From the NCBI GenBank assembly GCA_047947115.1, contig CP170459.1:4640001-4704000 (forward strand): a DNA stretch of 64,000 bases. The letters are read 5' to 3'. The notes under the pieces are model-generated. The model had not been told where the DNA came from and searched no databases. It saw only the letters and a program-made list of their open reading frames with translations. Source of the DNA: Verrucomicrobiota bacterium (lineage in GTDB: Bacteria; Verrucomicrobiota; Verrucomicrobiia; Limisphaerales; AAA164-E04). Made by a program: the position numbers and the translations under genes. Positions 40,664 through 55,430 of this stretch are shown here, piece after piece; position 1 is the stretch's first letter; every line of letters begins with the position of its first letter.

Positions 40664-40777
40664 GGCGGTCAGTGAATCACTCCTCGAAACAAAACAAGAA
40701 GGAAAACACAACAAACCCTGACAAAACACCCCCCAACCAACAATGAAAAAAAAGCCCCAACTTTATAAAAACCCCAG

Positions 40778-40912
40778 GTAGCCGCATTCGCCAGAATGTG
40801 GACCCAAGTAGCCGCATTCGCCAGAATGTGGACCCAAGTAGCCGCATTCGCCAGAATGTGGCCACACTTTGGCAAGCGCGGCTACAGGTAGCTCTGGGCG
40901 TCCCGCCCGGAA
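40778..40912 (+). repeat. REP cluster: three 30-bp tandem GTAG units, one inverted copy and one GTAG-CGTCCCG-type unit
   Basis: GTAGCCGCATTC-GCCA-GAATGTGG at 40778, 40808 and 40838; inverted variant at 40862-40885; GTAGCTCTGGGCGTCCCGCCCGGAA at 40888. Confidence 0.88.
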
Positions 40913-41021: not shown

Positions 41022-41095
41022 GCGGGTGTGGTTCAATGGTAGAATGTGACCTTCCCAAGGTTGAGACGAGGGTTCGATTCCCTTCACCCGCTCCA
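41022..41095 (+). tRNA. tRNA-Gly(CCC)
   Basis: Acceptor stem GCGGGTG/CACCCGC, U73 and encoded CCA; anticodon loop TTCCCAA (CCC at 41054-56); T-loop GGTTCGATTCC. Confidence 0.97.
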
Positions 41096-41272: not shown

Positions 41273-41888
41273 TCAGACTTCGTCGTAGGTGGAATTGTAG
41301 ATTCCACGAAGCGTGTTGCCGTTGAAAGTCCAATAGGGTGCCGGAGCGACACTATACAAACCGTCTGTTATCAGCTTACGAGTGGCAGCAGTAATGGAAG
41401 TCTCCTCCCCTCGAAATCTGACTTTGCGGTCGGAAACCACCTCTACTGTTTCGTCCCCTTGGGTGAAGTGAAGAATTGATCCGACTGGAATACCCATTTC
41501 GGAGTAGTTCATGTTGGGTCGGCGCTGGAGCTTTTTGCTGGCTTCCCTGGAATCGATGTCCACTTTGTTGGCTTCCTCCACCACTGGGAGTGACATCCTC
41601 GACTGCCATCAGTTTAAGTAATGCAATGGCCTGATCGGGTTCGATCTGAAAGAATTCACGCTTCTGATTAATGCGATACGGACCGAAGGCTTGGTGAAAA
41701 GCACGCTCAACCACCTCCATATTTTCCACCTTTGCCGCATATGCGCATTCAAATGGAACAGGAACACCTGTGGAATAAAGCTCGTTCAGTCTTGTTTCAA
41801 CCTCTGCGCGGGAAGTTTTGCCAATCTTTACGAGACCCGGCATAGCTAGATTGATTAGAACGTAGACAATTCCGAGTTCCTGAGTCAT
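41273..41888 (-). pseudogene. GIY-YIG (T5orf172/MUG113-like) nuclease with C-terminal RAMA-like domain, frameshifted
   Basis: GIVYVL.N.AMPGLVKIGKT, STGVPVPF and REFF in one frame; C-terminal half (SITAA...APYWTFNG..L) in another; shift near 41585-41588. Confidence 0.8.
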
Positions 41889-42166
41889 GACAATTGCTTT
41901 CTGTTGATATCGGTATGGAGTTGGCAGGATTGCGCCAGCATGGCTCCTTCGGCGTCGGTGTAACGCGGTTTGAATTCCCGAACCTTGGCGTCGAGCAGGT
42001 TGTCGAAGAAGTAAGAACGCTCCTTTGCTCCATCGGCTGATGGCAAATCAGGATCAAACCCGCGCCGCTGCTCAGCGTCCTCGCAAGGCACTATCATCCA
42101 GCCGACAGCGTCGGCGTATTCGAGAATCCGAACTTGGGCAGTTTTTTGCTCTCCGGGAGTAGGCAT
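41885..42166 (-). pseudogene. hsdR: 5' stub of a type I restriction subunit R (copy 2)
   Basis: MPTPGEQKTAQVRILEYA..VGW...AEQRRGFDP resembles HsdR N-termini; truncated at 93 aa. Confidence 0.7.
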
Positions 42167-42169
42167 GGC

Positions 42170-44557
42170 TCAGTCTTCTGAAAGGAACCTGATTGCGTCA
42201 GTAGCTTCCTGAAACTGCCCGGAAAGCTCTGGCTTACCGACAAAGTGATATGACACGAAGCGGGCACCTTCGCGCTCGGTGCGATTAAAGAAGTAACATG
42301 CGTTTTTCGATGTTCCTGGCGAGGCATTGACTTGAATCAGCGGCAACAACTTCAGGGCGCCACTCTGGTCCCCGTTAACGATGTAAAGGCTATCGACATC
42401 CAACCATGTAGTCATCGATCGTGACTCCTTCAGGAACTCGCTGTTACTGCCTCTGAGCATGGCAATTTCATTTTCAAAAACGCCTCTGCGTGGTCTGCAA
42501 TGTATAGCGTTCACGACAACCGCCGAATCCCACACATCGGACATAGCTTGTCGAAGTTTTTCAACCTGCGCAAGTAGCTGTGCATTGCGGAGTTTTGCTT
42601 CATCTTGTCCCACGACACCACCATGGCCGCTCCAGTCGTTACGCATCTTGTTCGTTGCCCCAAGAATAGCGGCAATGCCTTTACTAGATAGCAGGCTTGG
42701 CAGCTTGAGCCCAGAATCAGCGAAAATCGACGCACAGATTGCCCTGTCGTTCTTTGCATCATCAGGTTTCTTGCCGTGCTCTTGCAGTAGTAATCGTGTC
42801 TGTTTTCCGAGGTATTCCACGACGAGCTTCCAAGTTCCAAATGTCCCGCGTCGGAAGCTAAGATTCTGCTTCCCCATTGATTCTTTCAGCTTCTGTTTGT
42901 GCAACGCATACAGCGCCTCGTTTCTGCTGAATGCACTCAGAAGAATGACACTTAGAAACTCGGCTGTTGCTTCGAAGAAATGGAGAAGGTGCTCATGCTT
43001 GGTCTTGTAGTCGTCACTTGGAGTCGCTTGCCAGGCGCGCAGGATGGATGCAATGGGAAATGGAATTGTCTCAAACCATTGGTCAAGCCCGATGCTAGCC
43101 TGCTCCTTCAATTCCCCTGTAATTCTCGCAGTGAACTCCGTCAAACGCTCACTCACGGTGTCCGCAAAGCGTGGGTTTCTCCAGAGCTCTCGCCTCAATT
43201 CCTGCAAATCGTTCTGAAGGCTGAACAAAGTGTTCTCTTCAGCAGAAAGTCTGGCTTCGATCTCAAGCATCTTTTGTTGGGTAGTCAAATCGGGGATGAA
43301 CACCTGAAGACTTTTAAGGGTCTGTTTATTCAGCTTGGGAATGGTGGTCCCTGACTTGCCCCACTCACGGATCTTCTTCCCAAGCTCAGAGTTCAGGAAC
43401 TGAGCGATAAATGATGCGTGAGATTTCGCAGGGTCGACGACGACCTGAGCGTAGTTCTGCGCTTTCATCGTCAGTTCATCAATCGAGTCGACCACATCGC
43501 TTTGACCGATCATGGGAACGAAAATTGCATTCGGCGCTATCGGGAATTTGAAACCCTCTCCAAAGCGACCGAGGTTGATTGTGGTCGCGAGATCTTCAAG
43601 AAGGATCGCAGGAAAACCGATCTGCTTACTGGCCGTTTCGAAGTAATCACTTGCCCGGAGCGAGTCTATACCGCGAAAGTCGAGCGCCTCAACATAACGG
43701 CCCAGTTCAACTGCTCCGCCTTCCTTGCCGTTGGCCAGATTGGACAGAATATGTGAGTTGGTATTTGCATCACCTGAAAGTTGCGCCACAAACATCGGCT
43801 TGGTCGACGATTTCGTGATAACCAAGAGGTATGTCGTGATTGCCGTGTAAGGAGCGAAGGACCCGGAAGGCAATGCGAGCGCCGCATCCACATTAAAACC
43901 AAGATCGGCGAAGCGCCTTAAAACAGATCGCTTGGAGAAAAAGAATGACAGCGGGACCACAAAAAGCCCCAAGCCATTCTCAGATAGCCTCGCGGTGGAC
44001 GCCGCAAGAATCAGATTCCCAAGATCATCCTTTAGCTCAAGCGGATTTCCCGCCATATCGGAAAGCAATAGCATCTCACTCGCTCTCCCGCCAAATGGCA
44101 GGCAACTGACAACGATGTCTATCGGATTTGCCAGCTTCTCCAGAAGCTCGAGAGGCTTGCCAATCATCCACTCTGCTGTAGGAAACAACGCTTTTGCAAG
44201 CATGCCCTCAGACGCATTCATATTGAAAGCGTAGCACCTTGAGACAGACACTGCGCGCTGAGCAATTGCCAGCAACGTTCCGACTCCAGCCCAAGGGTCA
44301 CACAGCGTTTGAGGAGAACGACCAGCAAGGAGTTTAGGCAGAGCATCGGAAAGAACAGGTGGAACATGAAGGTGATCAACATGAGGTCCGCCAAAAGTCT
44401 GAAGAATTGTGGGTATCAACACTGGAAGCTGGTCGGAGGGAACTGTGATTCCGAGTGAATTGAGACGCTCGGCAACGGCAATCGGAGCGACAGGAGCAGT
44501 GCCATGAGCAATTTCGTTCCTGAGTTTTCGCAGTTCGTTGAGCAATTCCGGGTTCAT
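42170..44557 (-). CDS. Fusion of a degenerate N6-adenine methyltransferase fold, an HsdS-like TRD/helix and a HEPN-like C-terminal domain
   Basis: Motif I DPWAGVG; motif IV degenerate SCLPFG; FLNSELG...GTTIPKLNK..LKSLQVFIPDL..QQK; RNDWSGH and N-terminal RNEIAH. Confidence 0.75.
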   Translation of the reverse strand: MNPELLNELRKLRNEIAHGTAPVAPIAVAERLNSLGITVPSDQLPVLIPTILQTFGGPHVDHLHVPPVLSDALPKLLAGRSPQTLCDPWAGVGTLLAIAQRAVSVSRCYAFNMNASEGMLAKALFPTAEWMIGKPLELLEKLANPIDIVVSCLPFGGRASEMLLLSDMAGNPLELKDDLGNLILAASTARLSENGLGLFVVPLSFFFSKRSVLRRFADLGFNVDAALALPSGSFAPYTAITTYLLVITKSSTKPMFVAQLSGDANTNSHILSNLANGKEGGAVELGRYVEALDFRGIDSLRASDYFETASKQIGFPAILLEDLATTINLGRFGEGFKFPIAPNAIFVPMIGQSDVVDSIDELTMKAQNYAQVVVDPAKSHASFIAQFLNSELGKKIREWGKSGTTIPKLNKQTLKSLQVFIPDLTTQQKMLEIEARLSAEENTLFSLQNDLQELRRELWRNPRFADTVSERLTEFTARITGELKEQASIGLDQWFETIPFPIASILRAWQATPSDDYKTKHEHLLHFFEATAEFLSVILLSAFSRNEALYALHKQKLKESMGKQNLSFRRGTFGTWKLVVEYLGKQTRLLLQEHGKKPDDAKNDRAICASIFADSGLKLPSLLSSKGIAAILGATNKMRNDWSGHGGVVGQDEAKLRNAQLLAQVEKLRQAMSDVWDSAVVVNAIHCRPRRGVFENEIAMLRGSNSEFLKESRSMTTWLDVDSLYIVNGDQSGALKLLPLIQVNASPGTSKNACYFFNRTEREGARFVSYHFVGKPELSGQFQEATDAIRFLSED

Positions 44558-44559
44558 GT

Positions 44560-44721
44560 TTAGTCCATTCTGATCTTCTTGCGGTGGTCGGCAGGTGGGA
44601 CTTCGGGATCAAAACCGTGCCTCTGCTCGGCTTCATCCAGCGACTCAAACATCCATCTGACAGCCTCGGCAGAATCGAGTATCCGGGCTTGGACGGCTTT
44701 GTGTTTTATTGGGTTGGGCAT
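44560..44721 (-). pseudogene. hsdR: 5' stub of a type I restriction subunit R (copy 1; 53 aa, absent from the ORF track)
   Basis: Manual translation MPNPIKHKAVQARILDSAEAVRWMFESLDEAEQRHGFDPEVPPADHRKKIRMD*, homologous to 41885-42166. Confidence 0.7.
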
Positions 44722-44727
44722 AAAAAC

Positions 44728-47682
44728 CTACTGGCTCGCCAGCGAATAGCGCCTCTCACGGGCCTTAAATGCGGCCTCCCCACCTTCAAGAAGCAGGCAA
44801 ACCGATTCCCGAATTCCCATTTCCACTCCAGCTACTGAATGCTCCAAAGAGCCAGAATCGTAGCGCAGGCATGGGTAAGGCTGGTTATCAGGACGCTCAG
44901 CCGTCGCGATAACGATTTGCTCAGCATCTGTAGCGACCACCAAATTAGGATTGTGAGTGATTAGAATAATCTGCCGGCGTGTCTTGGCCTTCCGAATGTA
45001 AGGAACGAGCTGCTTGTAAACAGACGAGTTGTCCAAATTGCCCTCAGGCTGGTCGATCAACAAAGGACGTGTGTCGTCCTCATCCATCAATAGATAGAGC
45101 ACTAGGAGTGCAATGCCGCGTGTGCCTGGTGAGAGATATTCTAGCTGAGTCCCAGAATAATGAATCTTATAAGTTAGTTCGACGTGCTCAACCGAGAACA
45201 ACCAATCATTGAGCTCAACCTCAGTCAGTTTGGCAGTTCCAAACTCGCTGGGGAATGTCCTTGGATCTATCACGGCAATCAATTCCCTAAACGCAACCTC
45301 AATTTTGTCGGGATCGCCACTCTTCCATGCTGGAGCGAGCTTCGTATCGACAATTTTCTCGATCTCATTTCTCTTGGATTCTACGCCAGCACGACGTCCA
45401 TCAAAGAAACGGGACGATTGTGCTAACCAAGACTTGGCGTCGACCTGGTATCCAACTGAGACGCTAAACTGCATTTCCTCTCCTAATTGATCAATTGCCT
45501 CCTGCAACGGGGTGTATAATTCCTTTAACCCCTCCTCGTCGGCAGACAACGCCTTGAATACTTCGAGATAGATCTCGATCTGGCGCTCCCTTCGCTTTAC
45601 AAGCATCGCCGATACCCTATCGTCGAGATTCTTGATCTCCTTATCCAGTCGCTCGGCGGACTTTGTCCGTTCAGCAATCTGCTTCTGCAGGTCAAGAAGA
45701 CGTTTTCGGCTGACCTCATCCTTCGCAACAGTCTCCTTCAAAAAGTTGATCTTTCGTTTCACGGTTAAAACAGACTGGGTGCCTTCATCGTCTTCCTCCG
45801 TTCCTTTTAGACTCGTGATTTCAGCGTCAATCTTTTCGATTTCTTTATCAAGCAAGCCATCTGCATCAGGTGACCATGTTGGGGCCAATGCAGTTACAGT
45901 GGCCTCGCCGACATCAGCAATGCGCAATTGCTTTTGGATTAAACCAATTTCCTGATCCGTGTTCTTTCTAACAGTAGAGAAAGATTCGATGGCGGTCTCG
46001 ATCACTCTTCGTATTCTTGTTTTGGTGGAGACTTTCTCTTCAATTTGATTAAGGAATGCCTGCTGCTTTTCGAGGTCCTCCAAGATTTTCTTGTCTACAG
46101 ATTGAGTTGCATCAGGAAGTTGCTTCTTAAGCTCTTCAGCTTGTTTCTCAGCTTCAGCTTTCGCTTTTATCTTCAATGGTCGTTGGTCAACTGATTCCTG
46201 TAATCGCTCGACTTCTTTGTGCAGGGTTGCCAAGTCACCACGTAAAGATTCCTTCTGAATGTTCGAAGCTGCCTCCCGTGCCTTTCGGAGTTCTCCAAAT
46301 GACGAATACCCTTCCTTTTGAACCTCATCGAGTTTCGCAAACACAACATCCTCAATAGCATTCTGCAGTTCGGTTCCCTCGTGATCCGAAGAACACAATC
46401 GCTCAACAAAATCCTGAGATAAGTAACGGACGCGCGGCTTGCTTGCAATGAATGGAGAATCAGTGAGAATTCCTTCAGTAACTTCTCCACCACCCCATTC
46501 CAGTTCAACTTTTGTTCCTGAAAGATGAAGTGCACCTTTTGTGATGAAAGACGACTGGGAATTCAAATCCATTGTGAAACCTGCGGCAAATGCAACAAGA
46601 TCAGCAATGGCGGTCTTTCCCGCTCCCTTCTCGCCAATTACTGCCACGAGTCCCTGGTTTAGTTCCAAGAAAAAAGTAGAGAACCACCCTGAAGAGTTTG
46701 AAATCGAGACGCTTCGAATTTGTTGACTTTGATCAGTTGGCCTTGGCGGTTGTTTGCCCACATGGATCCGATCCTCTGGTTCCCAAAGAATCTGACGAAG
46801 TCCATGGAAGGAAGGATCGCTTTTGATCCAGCAAAATCGGTCTTCGGCAGGTTTAAATAGAGTCTCAACGGCGTGAGCATCAGAGCCATGTATACAAGGC
46901 TTAAGGGATCGGTATTGTCTAATGATCTCATCAGTCGAAGTGCTGGCTTTTTGGCCAAGGTAGTGCTTCCGATCTGATGGGTTTCCGGAAAAAACAAAAT
47001 CGCACCACTTCAGAATTTCGTCTCTTATAGCACCAAACCCATCAAGTGGAAGGCCACTTATTCCATCTTTTCCGTTAGCAATCCCAACAAGCGAATTCGT
47101 GCGGAGCCACTTTTCCCTCCCTAACCAGTTTTTAATAGCAGTCTGATCAGGCTTGAACTGCTCGATACCAAATTTGTATGCCCGATCATCATCAGTAATG
47201 TTCGGATTTTGGACCTTTCCGAATTCGATCAATTCCTCCTTGCAGCAGCCGTAATCCTGTCCGTCATAATGGAATTTCAAATTGCGTAATGCACGCTTGA
47301 TTTGATCTACATGATCTGGCTCCGAAGGATCAACCAAAAGATGAAGATTGAGAGCTTTGCCGTCGTCCGTCTGCGGCATCATGCGAAATTCGATATTCGG
47401 TATAAGGAGATCGACAGATTTTAGACGGTCGTTGTTCCTATGCTCAACAAGTAGTTTCTCGTAACCGTCCACCGTCATGTAATCCGTTACACCAATTACA
47501 GAAATTTCTGCATCGGCCGCCGCAGTCTCAAGCGCATCCACATACTCATTCCAATTGAGACTTCCAAACGGGCTCCCGAGCTTACTTTCAGGTGTGTGGA
47601 CATGCGGGTCCCAACGCCGCCACTCGGAACCTCTTTGCCAAGTAGAAGGTGAGATTTTGATAGGTGATTCTGAATTGCTCAT
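44728..47682 (-). CDS. PHP-domain + SMC/ABC-type ATPase (TrlF-family / Ppl-like anti-phage protein)
   Basis: WDPHVHTP, GVTDY and HGSDAH PHP motifs; Walker A GEKGAGKT; coiled coil; LSPGTRG, LLIDQPEGNLDN and ITHN. Confidence 0.85.
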   Translation of the reverse strand: MSNSESPIKISPSTWQRGSEWRRWDPHVHTPESKLGSPFGSLNWNEYVDALETAAADAEISVIGVTDYMTVDGYEKLLVEHRNNDRLKSVDLLIPNIEFRMMPQTDDGKALNLHLLVDPSEPDHVDQIKRALRNLKFHYDGQDYGCCKEELIEFGKVQNPNITDDDRAYKFGIEQFKPDQTAIKNWLGREKWLRTNSLVGIANGKDGISGLPLDGFGAIRDEILKWCDFVFSGNPSDRKHYLGQKASTSTDEIIRQYRSLKPCIHGSDAHAVETLFKPAEDRFCWIKSDPSFHGLRQILWEPEDRIHVGKQPPRPTDQSQQIRSVSISNSSGWFSTFFLELNQGLVAVIGEKGAGKTAIADLVAFAAGFTMDLNSQSSFITKGALHLSGTKVELEWGGGEVTEGILTDSPFIASKPRVRYLSQDFVERLCSSDHEGTELQNAIEDVVFAKLDEVQKEGYSSFGELRKAREAASNIQKESLRGDLATLHKEVERLQESVDQRPLKIKAKAEAEKQAEELKKQLPDATQSVDKKILEDLEKQQAFLNQIEEKVSTKTRIRRVIETAIESFSTVRKNTDQEIGLIQKQLRIADVGEATVTALAPTWSPDADGLLDKEIEKIDAEITSLKGTEEDDEGTQSVLTVKRKINFLKETVAKDEVSRKRLLDLQKQIAERTKSAERLDKEIKNLDDRVSAMLVKRRERQIEIYLEVFKALSADEEGLKELYTPLQEAIDQLGEEMQFSVSVGYQVDAKSWLAQSSRFFDGRRAGVESKRNEIEKIVDTKLAPAWKSGDPDKIEVAFRELIAVIDPRTFPSEFGTAKLTEVELNDWLFSVEHVELTYKIHYSGTQLEYLSPGTRGIALLVLYLLMDEDDTRPLLIDQPEGNLDNSSVYKQLVPYIRKAKTRRQIILITHNPNLVVATDAEQIVIATAERPDNQPYPCLRYDSGSLEHSVAGVEMGIRESVCLLLEGGEAAFKARERRYSLASQ

Positions 47683-48077
47683 GGAATATATTTCATACCG
47701 TGAACATATATCTTCACGGCTATCAGTTGGTGAAGAAGGGTGTGGAAGAAGTTCTGGATTTGAATCTTCTTGGACATCTCCATAAGAATCTTCTGCTCTG
47801 TTGTCGCGAGAGCTGACGCAATTTCCTTCTGCTCGTCCAAGGTGGGCGGGATTCCGACTTTGACAGCTCCTAGTTTTGTGGAGGACCCGACCTCCTTGGC
47901 GATACGATCAAATTCATCATAGAAGAAGTCACAAAGGAGTTTGTTGAAGATCAGCGGAATGACATAATTCTTGTATTTCAGGGGGGGCTTAGCACCACGA
48001 ATCGAACAGACCGCATCCCAGATCAAGGATTCAAGTAATTTCTCTTTTACCGATTGCTTACTCAAGCTCTCCTCCAT
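47679..48077 (-). pseudogene. Chimeric hsdM' / 'hsdS deletion relic
   Basis: N-terminal half LESLIWDAVCSIRGAK...YVIPLIF.K.LCD (HsdM N-terminus); C-terminal half IPPTLDEQKEIA..L...LLHQL (HsdS C-terminus). Confidence 0.72.
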
Positions 48078-48264: not shown

Positions 48265-49872
48265 CTAAGCAGACACTGCCGGGGATGATGCGCTCTCCGT
48301 GGTGAGTTCGGCCACGAGGGCTTCGAGGAGGTGCTGGGCAGTCGTTCGGGATTCTAGGAGCTGCGTTTCCAATTCATCCACTAGGGCAATCAGTTGGTTC
48401 ACTTTGGCGACGATCCGACGTTGTTCGGCGATGGGTGGAATTGGAACGGGTAGAGCACACATCACTCCACGTCCGACGTTCTTCATTGAGCTACTGGTGC
48501 CGGATGAGTTCTTTGCGTAATGATTTCTCGCTTGGCTTGAGGAATTAGCGAGATTGATAAAGTCTCGATCAATTTCGTCGGGGAACGTGAAGCGAACAAT
48601 CTTGTCGCTCATCATCAAATGTGGAGGGGTTTCGACGACTACCACACTTCGCGCAACCAGATCTTCGGTATTAGCTCTCGAGAGGAGGAAATCGCCAGGT
48701 TTCACTTCGCAGCCAGGTCGGGGTTCCATTTCTGGGGGTAAGGCCTTATTTTCATCAGGCTTGAAGGTGCCCCACGAGACCGCGCTAACCTTGAGCACTC
48801 CCCATTCAGTGCCTGTCCTTGGCTCAGGAAGGCACTGTGGGCTCCAGCCAGAATCACTGGTTAGACAGATACTCCCTAGTCTCACCCATTTCCACGATTG
48901 GGGAATATTGTATGGAACCTCGTGGTGATTAACATCGTCGTAGACTTTCGCTTTTTCAACAGCCCGAAGTTTTTTGATTCGCTCAATCAGCTTTTCCACG
49001 GCTTCGTCCCCCGGATCCTGTGGGACAAGTTTGCCTTGGACGGCGAGGGTGAGGATGGATTTTCGTAAGTCGGCAGGTGGGATGTGGTAGGAGGAATGGA
49101 ATAGGAAGTTGAGGTTGGCCGGGGTGGGCGCGTCGGCAAAGCGGGCCAGAGAGGCTCGGGCGAGGCCGTTTGCGCGGGTGTCGCGTTCCTTCTGCTGCAC
49201 CTCCAGTCGATCACACAAGGCCATCAACTCATCCACCTTCGCCACAATCCGCTTCTGCTCGGCAAGGGGTGGTAGGGGGAAATTAATAGATGCTAAGTCT
49301 CCCTTATTGAAACCTGCCTGAGCTGATCGGCTCGCTCCAGCGATTTTGGCCTGAAAGAAGTGTGACTTCAGCACTCTGAAGGCAAATTCTGGTAGCAAGG
49401 CGTCTTCTGGGTATATAAACTTAGCGAGCGCAACATTGTAGGCTCCGTCTCGCGCCCAGAAAATTTTGCCAACGGAGGCTCCGTATCGGCCAATGAGAAT
49501 TTCTCCTTCTCTACAAAATCGTTTTGTCGAATCCTCGGGAATGCAGACTGGAACCGGCCTTTCCCCTAAATCGCGGATTTGAAACAATCGCACATAGCCG
49601 GGCCTAGGCTGGTCAGAAAATTGACTCTTGGGAGGTTGGTTCCCTCCTTGGATGTCGCAGAATTTCCCAAAGTTCAGCAACCGCCAGTTTGAAGGTAGAT
49701 TGCTGGACAAAGGTTCATCCATATATCTGGATTCAACATTTTCATTTGTGGCGTTCTGATTGCTAAGCCGTCCTTGAACTGCCAAGTCCAAAACAAATCC
49801 TCGCATCTTCGCCACCGCATCGGGCGCATCAGCGAACTGGTCGAATTTTTCAAAAAACGTTTCGAGCTTCAT
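48265..49872 (-). CDS. hsdS: Type I restriction-modification specificity subunit
   Basis: Two TRDs, each followed by PLPPLAEQKRIVAKV / PIPPIAEQRRIVAKV; LAVQGKLVPQDP. Confidence 0.93.
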   Translation of the reverse strand: MKLETFFEKFDQFADAPDAVAKMRGFVLDLAVQGRLSNQNATNENVESRYMDEPLSSNLPSNWRLLNFGKFCDIQGGNQPPKSQFSDQPRPGYVRLFQIRDLGERPVPVCIPEDSTKRFCREGEILIGRYGASVGKIFWARDGAYNVALAKFIYPEDALLPEFAFRVLKSHFFQAKIAGASRSAQAGFNKGDLASINFPLPPLAEQKRIVAKVDELMALCDRLEVQQKERDTRANGLARASLARFADAPTPANLNFLFHSSYHIPPADLRKSILTLAVQGKLVPQDPGDEAVEKLIERIKKLRAVEKAKVYDDVNHHEVPYNIPQSWKWVRLGSICLTSDSGWSPQCLPEPRTGTEWGVLKVSAVSWGTFKPDENKALPPEMEPRPGCEVKPGDFLLSRANTEDLVARSVVVVETPPHLMMSDKIVRFTFPDEIDRDFINLANSSSQARNHYAKNSSGTSSSMKNVGRGVMCALPVPIPPIAEQRRIVAKVNQLIALVDELETQLLESRTTAQHLLEALVAELTTESASSPAVSA

Positions 49873-51350
49873 TTCGACGATCCGGCAGTGGCGGTGAGGG
49901 CTTGGTGGAGTTCCTGTTTCAACTTGCCGCGGGTTTCGGCGATTTGTTCGAGGAGTGCTTCGTATTCGGGCAGGAGTTCCTCGACGCTACGGTTGTCACC
50001 TTCGGCTTGGTGTGGGTTTTTGATATCGAGGTTGTAGTTGTTCTTCTTGATGTCCTCGATGCAGACGCGCCAGGCTTGCTCGGTTTCCTTGCGCTTGGAG
50101 TAGCGCCCGTTTTTGTCGGGTTTGCCCCACCATTTTTTCTCGGATTTGAATTCCTCAATGCGGATGGGTTTGCCCTTGTTGTAGCTTTTGGCGCCCTCGG
50201 GATAGGGGTGCTCGTAATACCATACTTCGGTGGTGGGCTGCCCCTTGGTGAAGAACAGCAGATTCGTCTTGATCCCTGTGTAGGGATTGAAGACGCCGTT
50301 GGGCAAGCGGACGATGGTGTGGAGGTTGCACTCGCTGAGGAGTTTTTCCTTGATACGGGTTTTGACACCTTCGCCGAATAGGGTGCCATCGGGCAGGACG
50401 AGTCCGGCGCGGCCACCTGGTTTAAGCACGCGCATGATGAGGACGAGAAAAAGGTCAGCGGTTTCGCGGGTGCGGAACTCGCTGGGGAAATTAGCCTCGA
50501 TGCCGTCTTCTTCCATGCCTCCAAAGGGCGGATTGGTGACGATACAGTCGACGTATTCCTTAGGCTTCCAGTCGGTGAGGGGCCTTGAAAGCGTGTTGTC
50601 GTGCCGGACATTGGACGGGACGTCGATGCCGTGGAGCATGAGGTTGGTCATGCAGAGAACATGCGGGAGGTGCTTTTTCTCGATGCCGGAGAAGCAGCTC
50701 TAGAGGGTCGCCATGTCTTTGTCGGTCTTTGCCTGGTCGCGGAGGTGGTCGATGGCACAAGTGAGAAATCCTCCCGTGCCGCAAGCGGGATCGAAGACGG
50801 TTTCGCCAAGTCGGGGGTTAACTTGCTCAACGATGAACTGTGTGACGGCTCGAGGAGTTTAGAATTCGCCCGCATTACCAGCGGACTGAAGATCCTTGAG
50901 AATTTTCTCGTAGATGTCTCCAAACAGGTGGCGGTCGTCGGAGGCGTTGAAATCGATGGCGTTGATCTTGTTGACGACCTGCCGCATGAGGGTGCCGTTC
51001 TTCATGTAGTTGTTGGCATCCTCGAACGTCATTCGGATGAGCCCGGCGATGTGATCCTGTCCGGCGGCCATGTTCTTGAGCGCGGGAAGCAGTGTGAGGT
51101 TGATGAAATCGAGCAGTGCGTCGCCGGTGATCCCCTCCTCGTCGGCGGCCCAGTTGCGCCAGCGGAGGTGATCCTTCAGCGGGGACTTGTAGTCATCATC
51201 GAAGAGTTCGAGTTGTGTCTCGCGGTCATCGAAAATTTTAAGGAAAAAGAGCCAAGCCATTTGTTCGATGCGCTGGGCGTCACCATAGGTGCCGGCATCC
51301 TTGCGCATGATGTCTTGGATAGATTTTACGAGGTTAGAAATGTTTGGCAT
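49869..51350 (-). pseudogene. hsdM: Type I R-M modification subunit with two in-frame nonsense codons
   Basis: Single frame: AGEF*TPRAV (TAA 50859-61), DPACGTGGFL, MATL*SC (TAG 50700-02), then TNPPFGG. Confidence 0.92.
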
Positions 51351-51362
51351 GAGTTAATTATT

Positions 51363-53741
51363 CTATGCTGCGGTAGTGTAAATGGCGTTTTCAAGGTCTC
51401 GAATAGCGGCGCGATAGGCGGCTTTTCCACCGAAAAACTGAACGATTTCGATGGGGGTGCCAAAACCGCGCAGTGGATCGACTTTGAGGACCTCCATGGA
51501 CTCGACGGTCTGGATGCCGCTGTCGGCGTATTTCGCAAGCAGCGCCTCAAGGACAACGCGGGCCTGCTCTCCGTATTTGCCGAACACGTTGCGCTTCTTC
51601 ACGTCGTCGGCACGTTCTTTGCGCGTAAGTGGCGGTTGGTCGTAGGCGATGTGGCAAATAAGGTCAAAGGCGTCGTAATCGCGCCCGACTTGGTCCGCCA
51701 ACTCGTCGAGGAAAAGTCCTTGGGCGGCCAGTTCGTCGATCAGGGCTTTTTTCTGATCGGCCGCGTTCCATCGGGTCAGAAAGTCGTCGAGCGTGGCAAA
51801 AGACTTATGCAGGGTCTTGCGGGTGTAGTCCGTGAGCGATTCGGTGATAAGTCGACCATCGGCGTCGAGGTATTGAACCCGCTCAATGGCGACGCTAACC
51901 TCCACGTCGTCGACGAAGTAGCATCTTGGTACCCCGGGTGCTTCGCCGCCGGGACCGTAGGGTGGTGGCGGTGGCTCTCCGATGATTCCCTCCGGGGGGT
52001 CTTCCCCGTCCCCTGGTTCGCCGGGCTCATCGGGCGGAACGACCGTTTCGCCTTCCTCCGGCTCGTAAATCTGAACGGGTTCACCATCGAAGTCGGGATC
52101 GGCGAAGAGCGCAGTGGCGCGTTTGAAATCCATGATGGTGAAGAAGAGCTTGTCGTAATCTTCGTTGATGCGAGTGCCGCGACCGATGATCTGTTTAAAC
52201 TCGGTCATGCTGTTGATACGCTTGTCGAGAACAATGAGGTGGCAAGTCTGTGCATCCACACCAGTGGACATCAGTTGAGAAGTGGTGGCGATGACCGGAT
52301 AGGTGGACTCGGGGTCGATGAAATTGTCGAGCTGTGCCTTACCCTCGTTGTTGTCACCGGTGATGCGCATGACATATTTGCTGTTCTCACCCGCAAGGTC
52401 AGGGTTGGCGTTGACGAGTGCCTGACGCATGCGTTCCGCGTGGTCGATATTTTCGCAGAAAACAATGGTCTTGGCGTAACGATTGGTGGCCTTGAGGAAT
52501 TCGGTGATTTTCGTAGCGACGAGATCGGTGCGCTTGTCGAGGACAAGATTGCGGTCCATGTCGCGTTCATTGTATTCGCGGTCCTCAATCTCAAAACCGT
52601 ATTTATCGAGCTTGCCCGCCTCCGGTCGCCAACCGTCGAGATCCTTGTCGAGGCCGATCCGGACAACCTTGTATGGCGCGAGGAAGCCGTCGTTGATGCC
52701 CTGACGAAGCGAGTAGGTGTAGATGGGCTCACCGAAGTATTCGATGTTGGAGACATCTTTTGTCTCTTTTGGTGTGGCGGTGAGACCTATCTGGGTGGCT
52801 GAGGTGAAATACTCGAGAACTTGACGCCAGGCAGCGTCAGCGGCGGCGCTGCCACGATGGCACTCATCAACAATGATCAGGTCAAAGAAATCAGGTGAGA
52901 ACTGTTTGTAAATGTTGCTGGCTTCCTCCGTGCCAGTGACGGCCTGGTAAAGGCAGAGATAAATCTCGTAGGACTTATCGACAGTGCGGTTGGTAATCTT
53001 TGTCATCGCCTGACCAAACGGCTTGAAGTCATTCGTCTTGGTCTGATCAGCAAGTATGTTTCGATCAACGAGAAAGAGGATGCGCTTCTTAGCGCCGGAT
53101 TTCCACAACCGCCAAATGATCTGAAACGCAGTGTAAGTCTTGCCCGTGCCCGTCGCCATGACGAGAAGAAGGCGATCCTCACCACGAGCAATGGCATCGA
53201 CCGTTCGATTGATGGCGTTAATCTGGTAATAACGTGGTTTCTTACCGCTGCCATCGTCGTAGTAGTCGAAAGTAGCGATGGCTTGCTGCTGAGGAGTATA
53301 CCCCTTGGAGGTGCAGTAACGTTGCCAGAGTTCTTCGGGGCTTGGGAACTTGTCGAGAGGAATCTCCCGTTCAACTGGATGTGCGCCAGGAGTTCGGTCG
53401 TGTTCGAGAAAACCATCACCATTGGAACTATAGGCGAAAGGAAGATCAAGGATCTCAGCGTAATCGAGTGCTTGTTGCATCCCTGCTCCGATGGCGTGAT
53501 TGTTGTCTTTTGCCTCGATGACGGCGATGGGAATATTCGGTTTGTAGAAGAGAATGTAATCGGCTTTTTTTGACTCACCCCGGTGCACGGTCTTCCCACG
53601 CACAATGACGCGCCCCTTGGTAAAGTGATGCTCTTCCAGGAGTTGGGTCATAACATCCCAGGAACCCTGCTTCTCTCTGTCGAGAGCAGGCGTAATGAAC
53701 TTGGTGCGGATGTCCGCTTCAGTCAGTGTTTTTTTGTTCAT
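51363..53741 (-). CDS. hsdR: Type I restriction endonuclease subunit R (EcoAI/type IB-like)
   Basis: ADYIL...IAVIEAK...QQALDYA nuclease motifs; [21 protein letters not shown] and QIIGRGTR. Confidence 0.95.
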
Positions 53742-54804
53742 GCTGCGTTCCTTCCTCGTTACTGCTTTCCTTTTCGCCGCCGCCAAGTCCCAGCACTTCG
53801 GCATCGAAGTCCGAAATGTAGAGGCGGTCCTGGACGATGCGGTATTTCTCGAATTCGGACTCGGCGTGGGCTTTGGCGATCTCGGCGGTGACTTTGCCGG
53901 CGTCCTGAAGGATCTCGCGGTCGGTTGCTTCGATGAATCGGTTGAGGCGGGTTTCCCAGTCCTGCATGGTCATGGGGATCTGTCGCTGTGCCATGTCCTC
54001 GGCGACGTCCAGGTAGGCGTTCACGAGCCGGGAGAGCTGAGCCATCTCGGGCTCGGTCAGGTAGTTCTTGGCGACACTGACATCGAACTTCTGGATCTTC
54101 CCGTGAGGAGCGTCACTCCACGTAGTAAGCCCCATGTGCTGTTTCTCTGCATCGGCCCGATCCACGATCACCTCGGCGGCGGTGTGACCGTGGATGGCCC
54201 AGTGGAGCTTGTTCTGCACGGTCGCGAAAAAGCGCTGAGTGGCGGTGGCGCTTCGGTCGTAGTCGATGGCGGTGGCGTAGATGTCGGTGATCTTCTGGTA
54301 GAACTTGCGCTCGCTGAGCCGGATTTCGCGGACGCGCTGAAGCTGTTCCTCGAAATACTGGCGTGTCAGGACGGTGCCACCGTGTTTGAGGCGCGCATCG
54401 TCCATGGCAAAGCCCTTGACAGTGAATTCCTTGACCACTGTGGTCGCCCACTTGCGGAACTGGACGGCTCGCTCAGAGTTGACCTTGTAGCCGACAGAGA
54501 TGATGGCAGAGAGGTTGTAGTGCTGCGTTTGGTAGAATTTGCCGTCAGTAGCAGTTATCCGAAATTTTCGGATAACTTCCATTTCCTCCAATTCACTGTC
54601 CTTGTACACCTTCTGCAGGTGGTAATTGATCGTTCGGACGTCGACATCATAGAGAACGGCCATCATTTTCTGGCTCAGCCAGACATTCTCGTCGGCATAA
54701 ACTGCCTCAACACCCCCTTCGCCCTTGGCAGTGATGAAAGTGAGGTATTCGGCCGCGGAAGAGCGCGTGATGGAGGTTTCCTTGTTGCCGGGCTTCTTTT
54801 TCAT
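53719..54804 (-). CDS. rhuM: Virulence RhuM family protein
   Basis: [54 protein letters not shown] and SDFD. Confidence 0.92.
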
Positions 54805-55116: not shown

Positions 55117-55329
55117 ATGGAACCAGACACTTCCCCATCCCCTGTCGCGGTGAGTCGCGACGTGTCGCGATAATCTCTTTCTGTTGAGGAGGTGGTTTTG
55201 TTGTTCGTGGAGGCTGGACTTCCCCGCTCTCATCGATCCATTCAACGTGCCTGCAAGCGAGGTCATTTTGATGCCATTCTTGGCGATACGGAAAAAGGAC
55301 AACAGCATTTCATCACCCCGGATTCAGTT
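55117..55329 (+). pseudogene. Truncated HTH-type mobile-element protein with an internal stop
   Basis: MEPDTSPSPVAVSRDVSR*SLSVEEVVLLFVEAGLPRSHRSIQRACKRGHFDA...FITPDSV; TAA at 55171-73; upstream TTGGCA-18-TATACT. Confidence 0.5.
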
Positions 55330-55430
55330 ATTCGAAATTTTCGAATAACTGAATCTTCCGCGAGTTCGTTATCGGCGAAGACTTTCTTGAGGTGGTAGTT
55401 GATGGTGTGGGTCTTTACGTCGTAAAGGAC
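55326..55430 (-). pseudogene. rhuM: Internal fragment of a second rhuM copy
   Basis: [35 protein letters not shown] aligns without gaps to rhu[36 protein letters not shown]. Confidence 0.8.

Follow-up and report, generated by a model that had tools for sequence, protein, structure and literature searches.

A dead type I methyltransferase fused to a likely HEPN ribonuclease: an apparently undescribed single-gene defense candidate

Why should a bacterium maintain an intact gene for a DNA methyltransferase (MTase) that has lost its catalytic residues? The question is raised by a 64,000-nucleotide stretch of a Verrucomicrobiota genome (assembly GCA_047947115.1, contig CP170459.1, positions 4,640,001 to 4,704,000; here, the window), in which an uninterrupted minus-strand open reading frame (ORF) of 795 amino acids (aa), at 42170-44557, lies among type I restriction-modification (R-M) genes. 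A first-pass annotation had described its product, P0001, as an N6-MTase fold with motif I and CLPF in place of the catalytic motif, and the ORF and all four motifs it listed were found at their positions. A contig from one DNA run, which may be the source sample, spans 43569-44412 with 1 difference. We propose, with a probability of about 45%, that P0001 and its homologs are one-chain decoys of a type I methyltransferase, in which binding of an anti-restriction protein would switch on a predicted HEPN RNase. That they are defense RNases of one of three kinds (decoy, DNA sensor or PrrC-like guard) we consider very probable. The parts of the protein are as follows.

42170..44557, minus strand: pseudo-methyltransferase~TRD~HEPN-like~OB protein (P0001), 795 aa; TRD, target recognition domain
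44378..44557, minus strand: residues 1-60, a shortened form of the N-terminal helices of HsdM (the alignment to HsdM N-termini starts at residue 1); contains RNEIAH (44504-44521)
43637..44377, minus strand: residues 61-307, fold of the gamma-class N6-MTases, lacking the catalytic residues
44279-44299, 44222-44224 and 44093-44104, minus strand: motif I, the replaced motif II acid and motif IV (CLPF)
43292..43612, minus strand: residues 316-422, one HsdS-type TRD, conserved family-wide
43088..43291, minus strand: residues 423-490, long helices resembling the conserved dimerization helix of HsdS, then a linker
42530..43087, minus strand: residues 491-676, helical HEPN-like domain with E529 (42971-42973) and R639-H645 (42623-42643)
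42173..42529, minus strand: residues 677-795, beta region with a match to OB-type barrels at 678-738 and after it a conserved ACYFYNR...SYH sheet

The whole-protein model had as its top Foldseek match PDB 7EEW, whose title names an intact MTase in complex with the DNA mimic Ocr (E 8e-16), and the alignment covers residues 1-465. Whereas HsdS would have two TRDs, each with a conserved helix, P0001 has one of each and is thus half an S subunit, which bears out the HsdS-like TRD and helix of the first-pass annotation. No ATPase family was found in P0001 with Pfam, PADLOC or NCBIfam. The architecture is best described as pseudo-M, half-S and HEPN-like, probably followed by an OB fold; the last of these had been passed over earlier, as had the loss of the S-adenosylmethionine (SAM)-binding acid and the breadth of the family.

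Searches for homologs returned 488 matching proteins among 8000 candidates, and at least 944 representatives (50% identity) at E<=1e-30. A genome scan gave 72 loci, 62 of which have the M-TRD-HEPN layout and were retained: 55 bacterial, 4 archaeal and 3 without assignment, in 15 named phyla. Residue counts below refer to an alignment of 128 members (P0001 plus the 127 of 149 new representatives that are 690-1000 aa long), with a second motif set of 50 members from genome loci and 29 true HsdM proteins from neighboring genes as the control for methylase motifs. The family is rare, with no match in 400 other genomes sampled from the phylum, and it is mobile, as genes in Alkalibacterium and Marinilactibacillus are 99.7% identical and copies occur on four plasmid records. 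Members are named "hypothetical protein", "N-6 DNA methylase" or "restriction endonuclease subunit S" in the source databases; because of the first two labels, defense inventories miss or misname them. The ESM Atlas held unnamed clusters only, at 0.89-0.92, and a phage collection contained no family match.

The case for a dead methylase is consistent across the family. In P0001, motif IV reads CLPF rather than NPP(Y/F/W). Its first residue is N in 9/128 members (D in 3, S in 14, the remainder C, I, V, A, F and others) but in 29/29 control HsdM proteins, and the full NPP[FW] occurs in only 3/128. In active MTases, an acidic residue after strand 2 binds the SAM ribose; P0001 has N112 at this motif II position, and E or D is present in 23/128 members compared with 28/29 controls. 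A SAM-dependent fold with its motifs in gamma order is nevertheless present in P0001, and across the family motifs I, IV and VIII keep their structural residues. Ratios of nonsynonymous to synonymous substitution (dN/dS) in the methylase region were 0.08-0.21 in six divergent bacterial pairs and 0.39 in one Methanocalculus pair, with synonymous sites near saturation and one near-identical pair uninformative. Judged from these alignments, the methylase domain is dead yet, like all the domains, under purifying selection.

The proposal that RNEIAH at the N terminus forms a second HEPN site was discarded: R is present there in 15/128 members and H in 9/128, the family consensus at this place is W...R, the same as in HsdM N-termini, and residues 1-60 aligned with HsdM N-termini from the first residue on. 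The motif is a remnant of the HsdM N-terminal helices.

Some longer members (locus L034, 9470-12367; P0167; P0187) carry a canonical HsdM with NPPF fused to the TRD-HEPN-OB part and may be active methylase-RNase fusions; one of them, from Prochlorococcus, has no hsdS in its flanks. In a midpoint-rooted tree of the C-terminal half, the two long NPPF members nest within the family as a clade of their own (support 1.0), grouped with two dead members (support 0.85). On this rooting, the tree suggests that a working HsdM was swapped in later.

The C-terminal domain is a likely HEPN RNase, on the following sequence evidence. An alignment of homologs, as the first-pass annotation had advised for RNxxxxH and a variable motif IV, showed six invariant columns, two of which are R639 and H645 of its HEPN-type motif RNDWSGH (each 128/128, and 50/50 in the genome loci set), with an R-to-H spacing of 4-6 in all 128, and motif IV was variable as anticipated. 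N640 is conserved in 127/128 and E529, within helix 517-544, in 126/128. A conserved acidic residue in the N-terminal helix is a HEPN feature. R-x4-6-H motifs alone prove little, since P0001 contains 4 such matches and shuffled sequences 2.07. Alignment with hhalign to 15 Swt1-like HEPN domains gave a probability of 61% and E 8e-5 with the motif in register, compared with 0.7% for a reversed control, and single members matched Abi_C, HEPN_Swt1 and Abi_2 at E 0.0016-0.023 and CARF_HEPN at 0.001. Fold matches to this domain were weak in score, but HEPN entries recurred among them. The C-terminal model matched nothing at E<=0.001 by Foldseek against PDB and viral models. A PDB sequence search with the C-terminal profile yielded one unrelated row, no curated HEPN family matched at its family cut-off, and no model in PADLOC, NCBIfam or Pfam covers the C-terminal 300 residues, so that the earlier suggestion to look for an existing name with PADLOC produced none for this part. 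The HEPN-like domain has the lowest dN/dS of all domains (0.04-0.14).

Fusions of the same HEPN-like and OB module to other domains also occur: with a Ser/Thr kinase, with a UvrD helicase, with DUF5655 (5 proteins) and with a reverse transcriptase. Its occurrence behind such varied partner domains fits a swappable toxin. The carriers (L067, 8240-10891; L068, 8306-10972; P0151, P0354, P0357, P0361, P0385 and P0399) are further defense candidates.

Genomic context was counted over 40 loci with wide flanks or over all 62 retained loci, in both cases including relatives that are not independent; hsd genes were called with our own iterated profiles, ten labels being checked by Pfam. Among the wide loci, 27/40 contain hsdM or hsdS, 25/40 at least two hsd genes, 20/40 all three and 9/40 none; 4/40 have a helicase label only, two of which may not be HsdR. 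With the non-independence of kin in mind, this co-occurrence is far above the background of the source genome, whose 6.08 Mb contain two type I loci. Of the 62 loci, 18 have the gene between hsdM/S and hsdR, 9 have it after the operon and 11 elsewhere near hsd genes; in the other 24, many of them on short contigs, no hsd gene is near. A PrrC-like defense context was thus correctly anticipated. The idea that the gene generally outlives decaying R-M genes did not hold, given the many wide loci with a full hsd set. Overall, the first-pass interpretation stood in its dead methylase, its HsdS-like TRD and helix, its HEPN-type motif and its context, and failed in its N-terminal Rx4H and in this supposed persistence.

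Partner systems are diverse, with HsdR of 780-1290 aa and motif IV of NPPF, NPPY or NPMW (the last in the neighboring hsdM of L001, L013, L014, L015, L017 and L030). A Streptomyces plasmid copy and the Methanocalculus copies have no hsd genes nearby. The TRD of the family is not hypervariable, unlike those of HsdS: in 45 pairs with family TRD identity of at least 55%, the N-terminal TRDs of the neighboring HsdS proteins had a median identity of 9%. Nor is it closer to the HsdS of its own neighbor, with a mean rank of 13.2 of 25 where 13.0 is expected (25 loci); copying of the neighboring specificity was on this ground rejected. Diverse partners, hsd-free loci and a TRD independent of the neighboring HsdS fit a self-contained sensor.

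In the window, the gene stands in a defense cluster in the order rhuM, hsdR, hsdM (two stops), hsdS, a chimeric stub, a TrlF ATPase gene, an hsdR stub, the P0001 gene, an hsdR stub, T5orf172 and tRNA-Gly.

53719..54804, minus strand: RhuM-family gene, head of the defense cluster
51363..53804, minus strand: hsdR, open full-length frame with EcoEI-type C terminus
49869..51350, minus strand: hsdM with two in-frame stops (50859-50861, 50700-50702)
48265..49872, minus strand: hsdS, 535 aa, two TRDs
44728..47682, minus strand: TrlF-family PHP and ABC-type ATPase, neighboring cargo
44575-44721: related hsdR stub directly before the gene
41885..42166, minus strand: 5' stub from a second hsdR, directly after the gene
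41376..41888, minus strand: T5orf172/MUG113 gene
41022..41095, plus strand: tRNA-Gly at the end of the defense cluster

The hsdM of the window is broken by its stops while hsdR and hsdS stay open; contigs from four DNA runs are short pieces only. The second type I locus of the genome, about 140 kb away (G000:C1:4825618-4831200), has open hsdM (NPPF), hsdS and hsdR and looks intact, with a 192-aa gene between hsdS and hsdR.

How might such a protein work? Two chains would pair through the HsdS-like helix and form an M2S-like clamp in the manner of half-S and M~S enzymes. An engineered half-S enzyme dimerizes to give a methylase that Ocr inhibits (PMC2877798), and M~S chains work as homodimers via such helices (PMC3874165). 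Because the helix runs straight into the HEPN-like domain, the state of the clamp might set whether two HEPN halves come together as an active site; in HEPN proteins the active site is built by two subunits, and DARNA is a nucleic-acid-activated HEPN system (DARNA preprint). An anti-restriction protein from a phage or plasmid would bind the decoy and turn on the predicted RNase, with the OB fold helping to hold RNA (tRNA or rRNA by analogy), and cleavage would stall translation and abort the infection. P0001 would then act as a backup behind the neighboring restriction enzyme, hitting phages that block it. An anti-restriction protein is the likeliest ligand, since catalysis is gone, the TRD takes no account of local specificity and some copies occur by themselves; in Ronin, HsdMS serves as bait irrespective of catalysis (bioRxiv 10.1101/2023.04.06.535777).

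The same dead methylase and TRD could instead bind DNA and switch on the HEPN domain directly; what they recognize would be one fixed sequence, a base that is modified or flipped, or a state that DNA typically takes on during infection. The TRD is as conserved as the HEPN-like domain (median identity 0.38 and 0.37), the motif IV aromatic is retained as F, W or Y in 81/128 members together with the LPxGxF motif, and DARNA provides a precedent. However, a TRD unlinked to the neighboring HsdS cannot be reading the local methylation site, and a fixed sequence would be easily shed by phages and would occur in host DNA with no methylase to mark it. We regard such DNA sensing as rather unlikely. A guard resembling PrrC, whose pseudo-M/S half docks on the neighboring HsdR or M2S complex and keeps the RNase silent until that complex is inhibited or degraded, seems slightly less likely still: its HsdM-shaped surface could bind HsdR, PrrC works in this way, and the placement between hsdM/S and hsdR or after the operon, together with complete hsd sets in half of the wide loci, would suit it. 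The hsd-free wide loci, the Streptomyces and Methanocalculus copies and the unlike types of partner systems speak against it, as does the intact gene beside a broken hsdM, although the genome has an intact-looking second type I locus.

Weak fold scores and the lack of a curated HEPN family match leave a small chance that the C-terminal domain is no RNase, or that the protein regulates the R-M operon rather than being a toxin. Against this stand the invariant R and H with the accompanying N and upstream E, the recurring HEPN entries, the lowest dN/dS in this domain and the swapping of the module onto other sensor domains. An active MTase with an unusual motif IV is very improbable: motif I and the fold are retained, public annotation calls some members "N-6 DNA methylase" and two long members carry a full HsdM with NPPF, but position 152 takes 17 different residues, the most frequent in at most 29/128, and no alternative conserved catalytic residue appears in the family alignment.

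The decoy reading likens the family in concept to Ronin and PrrC, and by comparison of architecture it belongs to neither. In Ronin from E. coli ECOR55, HsdM/HsdS is bait for Ocr, ArdA and Aop1 with catalysis dispensable and death or arrest as the outcome, but its canonical hsdM (NPPF) and hsdS are separate genes, accompanied by a 61-aa transmembrane toxin, ronA, and hsdR is missing. The family has bait and effector in one chain, a naturally dead methylase, a halved S and a HEPN-like effector, with hsdR in the window and in most R-M-linked loci. PrrC and RloC share a C-terminal HEPN RNase and a gene inside a type I R-M operon, PrrC being a backup when restriction is blocked, but use an ABC-ATPase regulator, whereas the family has no ATPase and brings M and S domains of its own. 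Single-chain M~S gamma-methyltransferases (7EEW; M.XmnI, M.DrdI as well as M.XcmI, PMC3874165 section 31) likewise join an M domain, one TRD and a dimerization helix, but are methylases with motif IV and no RNase; the family lost the motif IV and II residues and gained HEPN-like and OB domains. Swt1/Abi2-like HEPN (PF18731) was the best profile match of three HEPN families sampled, with the RN-x-W-x-H motif in register, but the family falls below the Pfam cut-off and has a longer domain with inserted helices, a trailing OB fold and the methylase fusion. PARIS (AriA/AriB), whose nuclease is reportedly not a HEPN, differs in having two proteins, an ATPase sensor and no R-M-derived domain. Like the proposed decoy, it senses Ocr, and it cleaves tRNA (PMC12409349). 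Of the MADS models, those for the Mad2 methylase (E 5e-10) and for Mad5 specificity matched weakly, which reflects shared M and S ancestry; Mad5 scored 20 against a cut-off of 400 bits, and there is no MADS operon.

A 2013 HEPN survey gives nucleases, helicases and ATPases as fusion partners of R-M-associated HEPN domains and says that these fuse "not to the methylases" (PMC3710099); should the HEPN call hold, the family is an exception. The available parts of papers on BREX (PMC12839542) and CoCoNuT (PMC11090510) contain no methylase-HEPN fusion of this kind, and in the mostly open literature covered no description of a dead methylase-TRD-HEPN fusion was found, with the architecture lists of PMC3710099 possibly bearing on novelty. 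The family is real and conserved, and apparently an undescribed single-gene defense candidate. More tentatively, it could be a cross-domain family of one-protein "integrated decoys", in which a type I methyltransferase clamp has become a pure receptor for DNA-mimic anti-restriction proteins, wired through its own dimerization helix to a HEPN RNase. It would then parallel, in bacteria, the plant immune receptors that carry built-in decoy domains, and would depart directly from the published rule that HEPNs linked to R-M have no fusions to methylases. Few systems are known to punish phages for blocking restriction (PrrC, PARIS and Ronin), all of them made of several proteins. Reduced to one gene and a naturally dead methylase, such a system lends itself readily to testing, would reveal how enzymes turn into receptors and would supply a simple reporter for new anti-restriction proteins.

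Further observations concern single loci. On a Gordonia plasmid (L106, 8708-11227), the member is in two ORFs, both annotated N-6 DNA methylase, directly after hsdM-hsdS-hsdR and near a SIR2 gene. The Methanocalculus copies (L056, L057, L061) occupy one fixed site among housekeeping-like genes and have lost motif I as well. In the window, the intact TrlF-family protein (44728-47682) has 984 aa, a PHP-like N terminus, an ABC-type ATPase and distant similarity to the anti-phage protein Ppl; it was rejected as a fixed partner, as its cluster did not reach three loci. A 132-aa chimera of an HsdM N terminus and an HsdS C-terminal helix (47679-48077, minus strand) is the scar that a deletion left of another type I operon. 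A 30-base unit is repeated three times in tandem just before tRNA-Gly (40773-40866), and a perfect 17-base inverted repeat lies at the far end of the cluster (55321-55355); no flanking copy of the tRNA-Gly 3' end was found near the cluster, and a 30-base copy lies far off in the genome. In three loci, copies of the hsdR 5' end flank a cargo gene on both sides (window, 44575-44721 and 41885-42166; L001, 7190-7606 and 12392-13102; L017, 9606-9956 and 12359-13333), as would be seen if cargo genes came into type I operons through a recombination that duplicates the start of hsdR.
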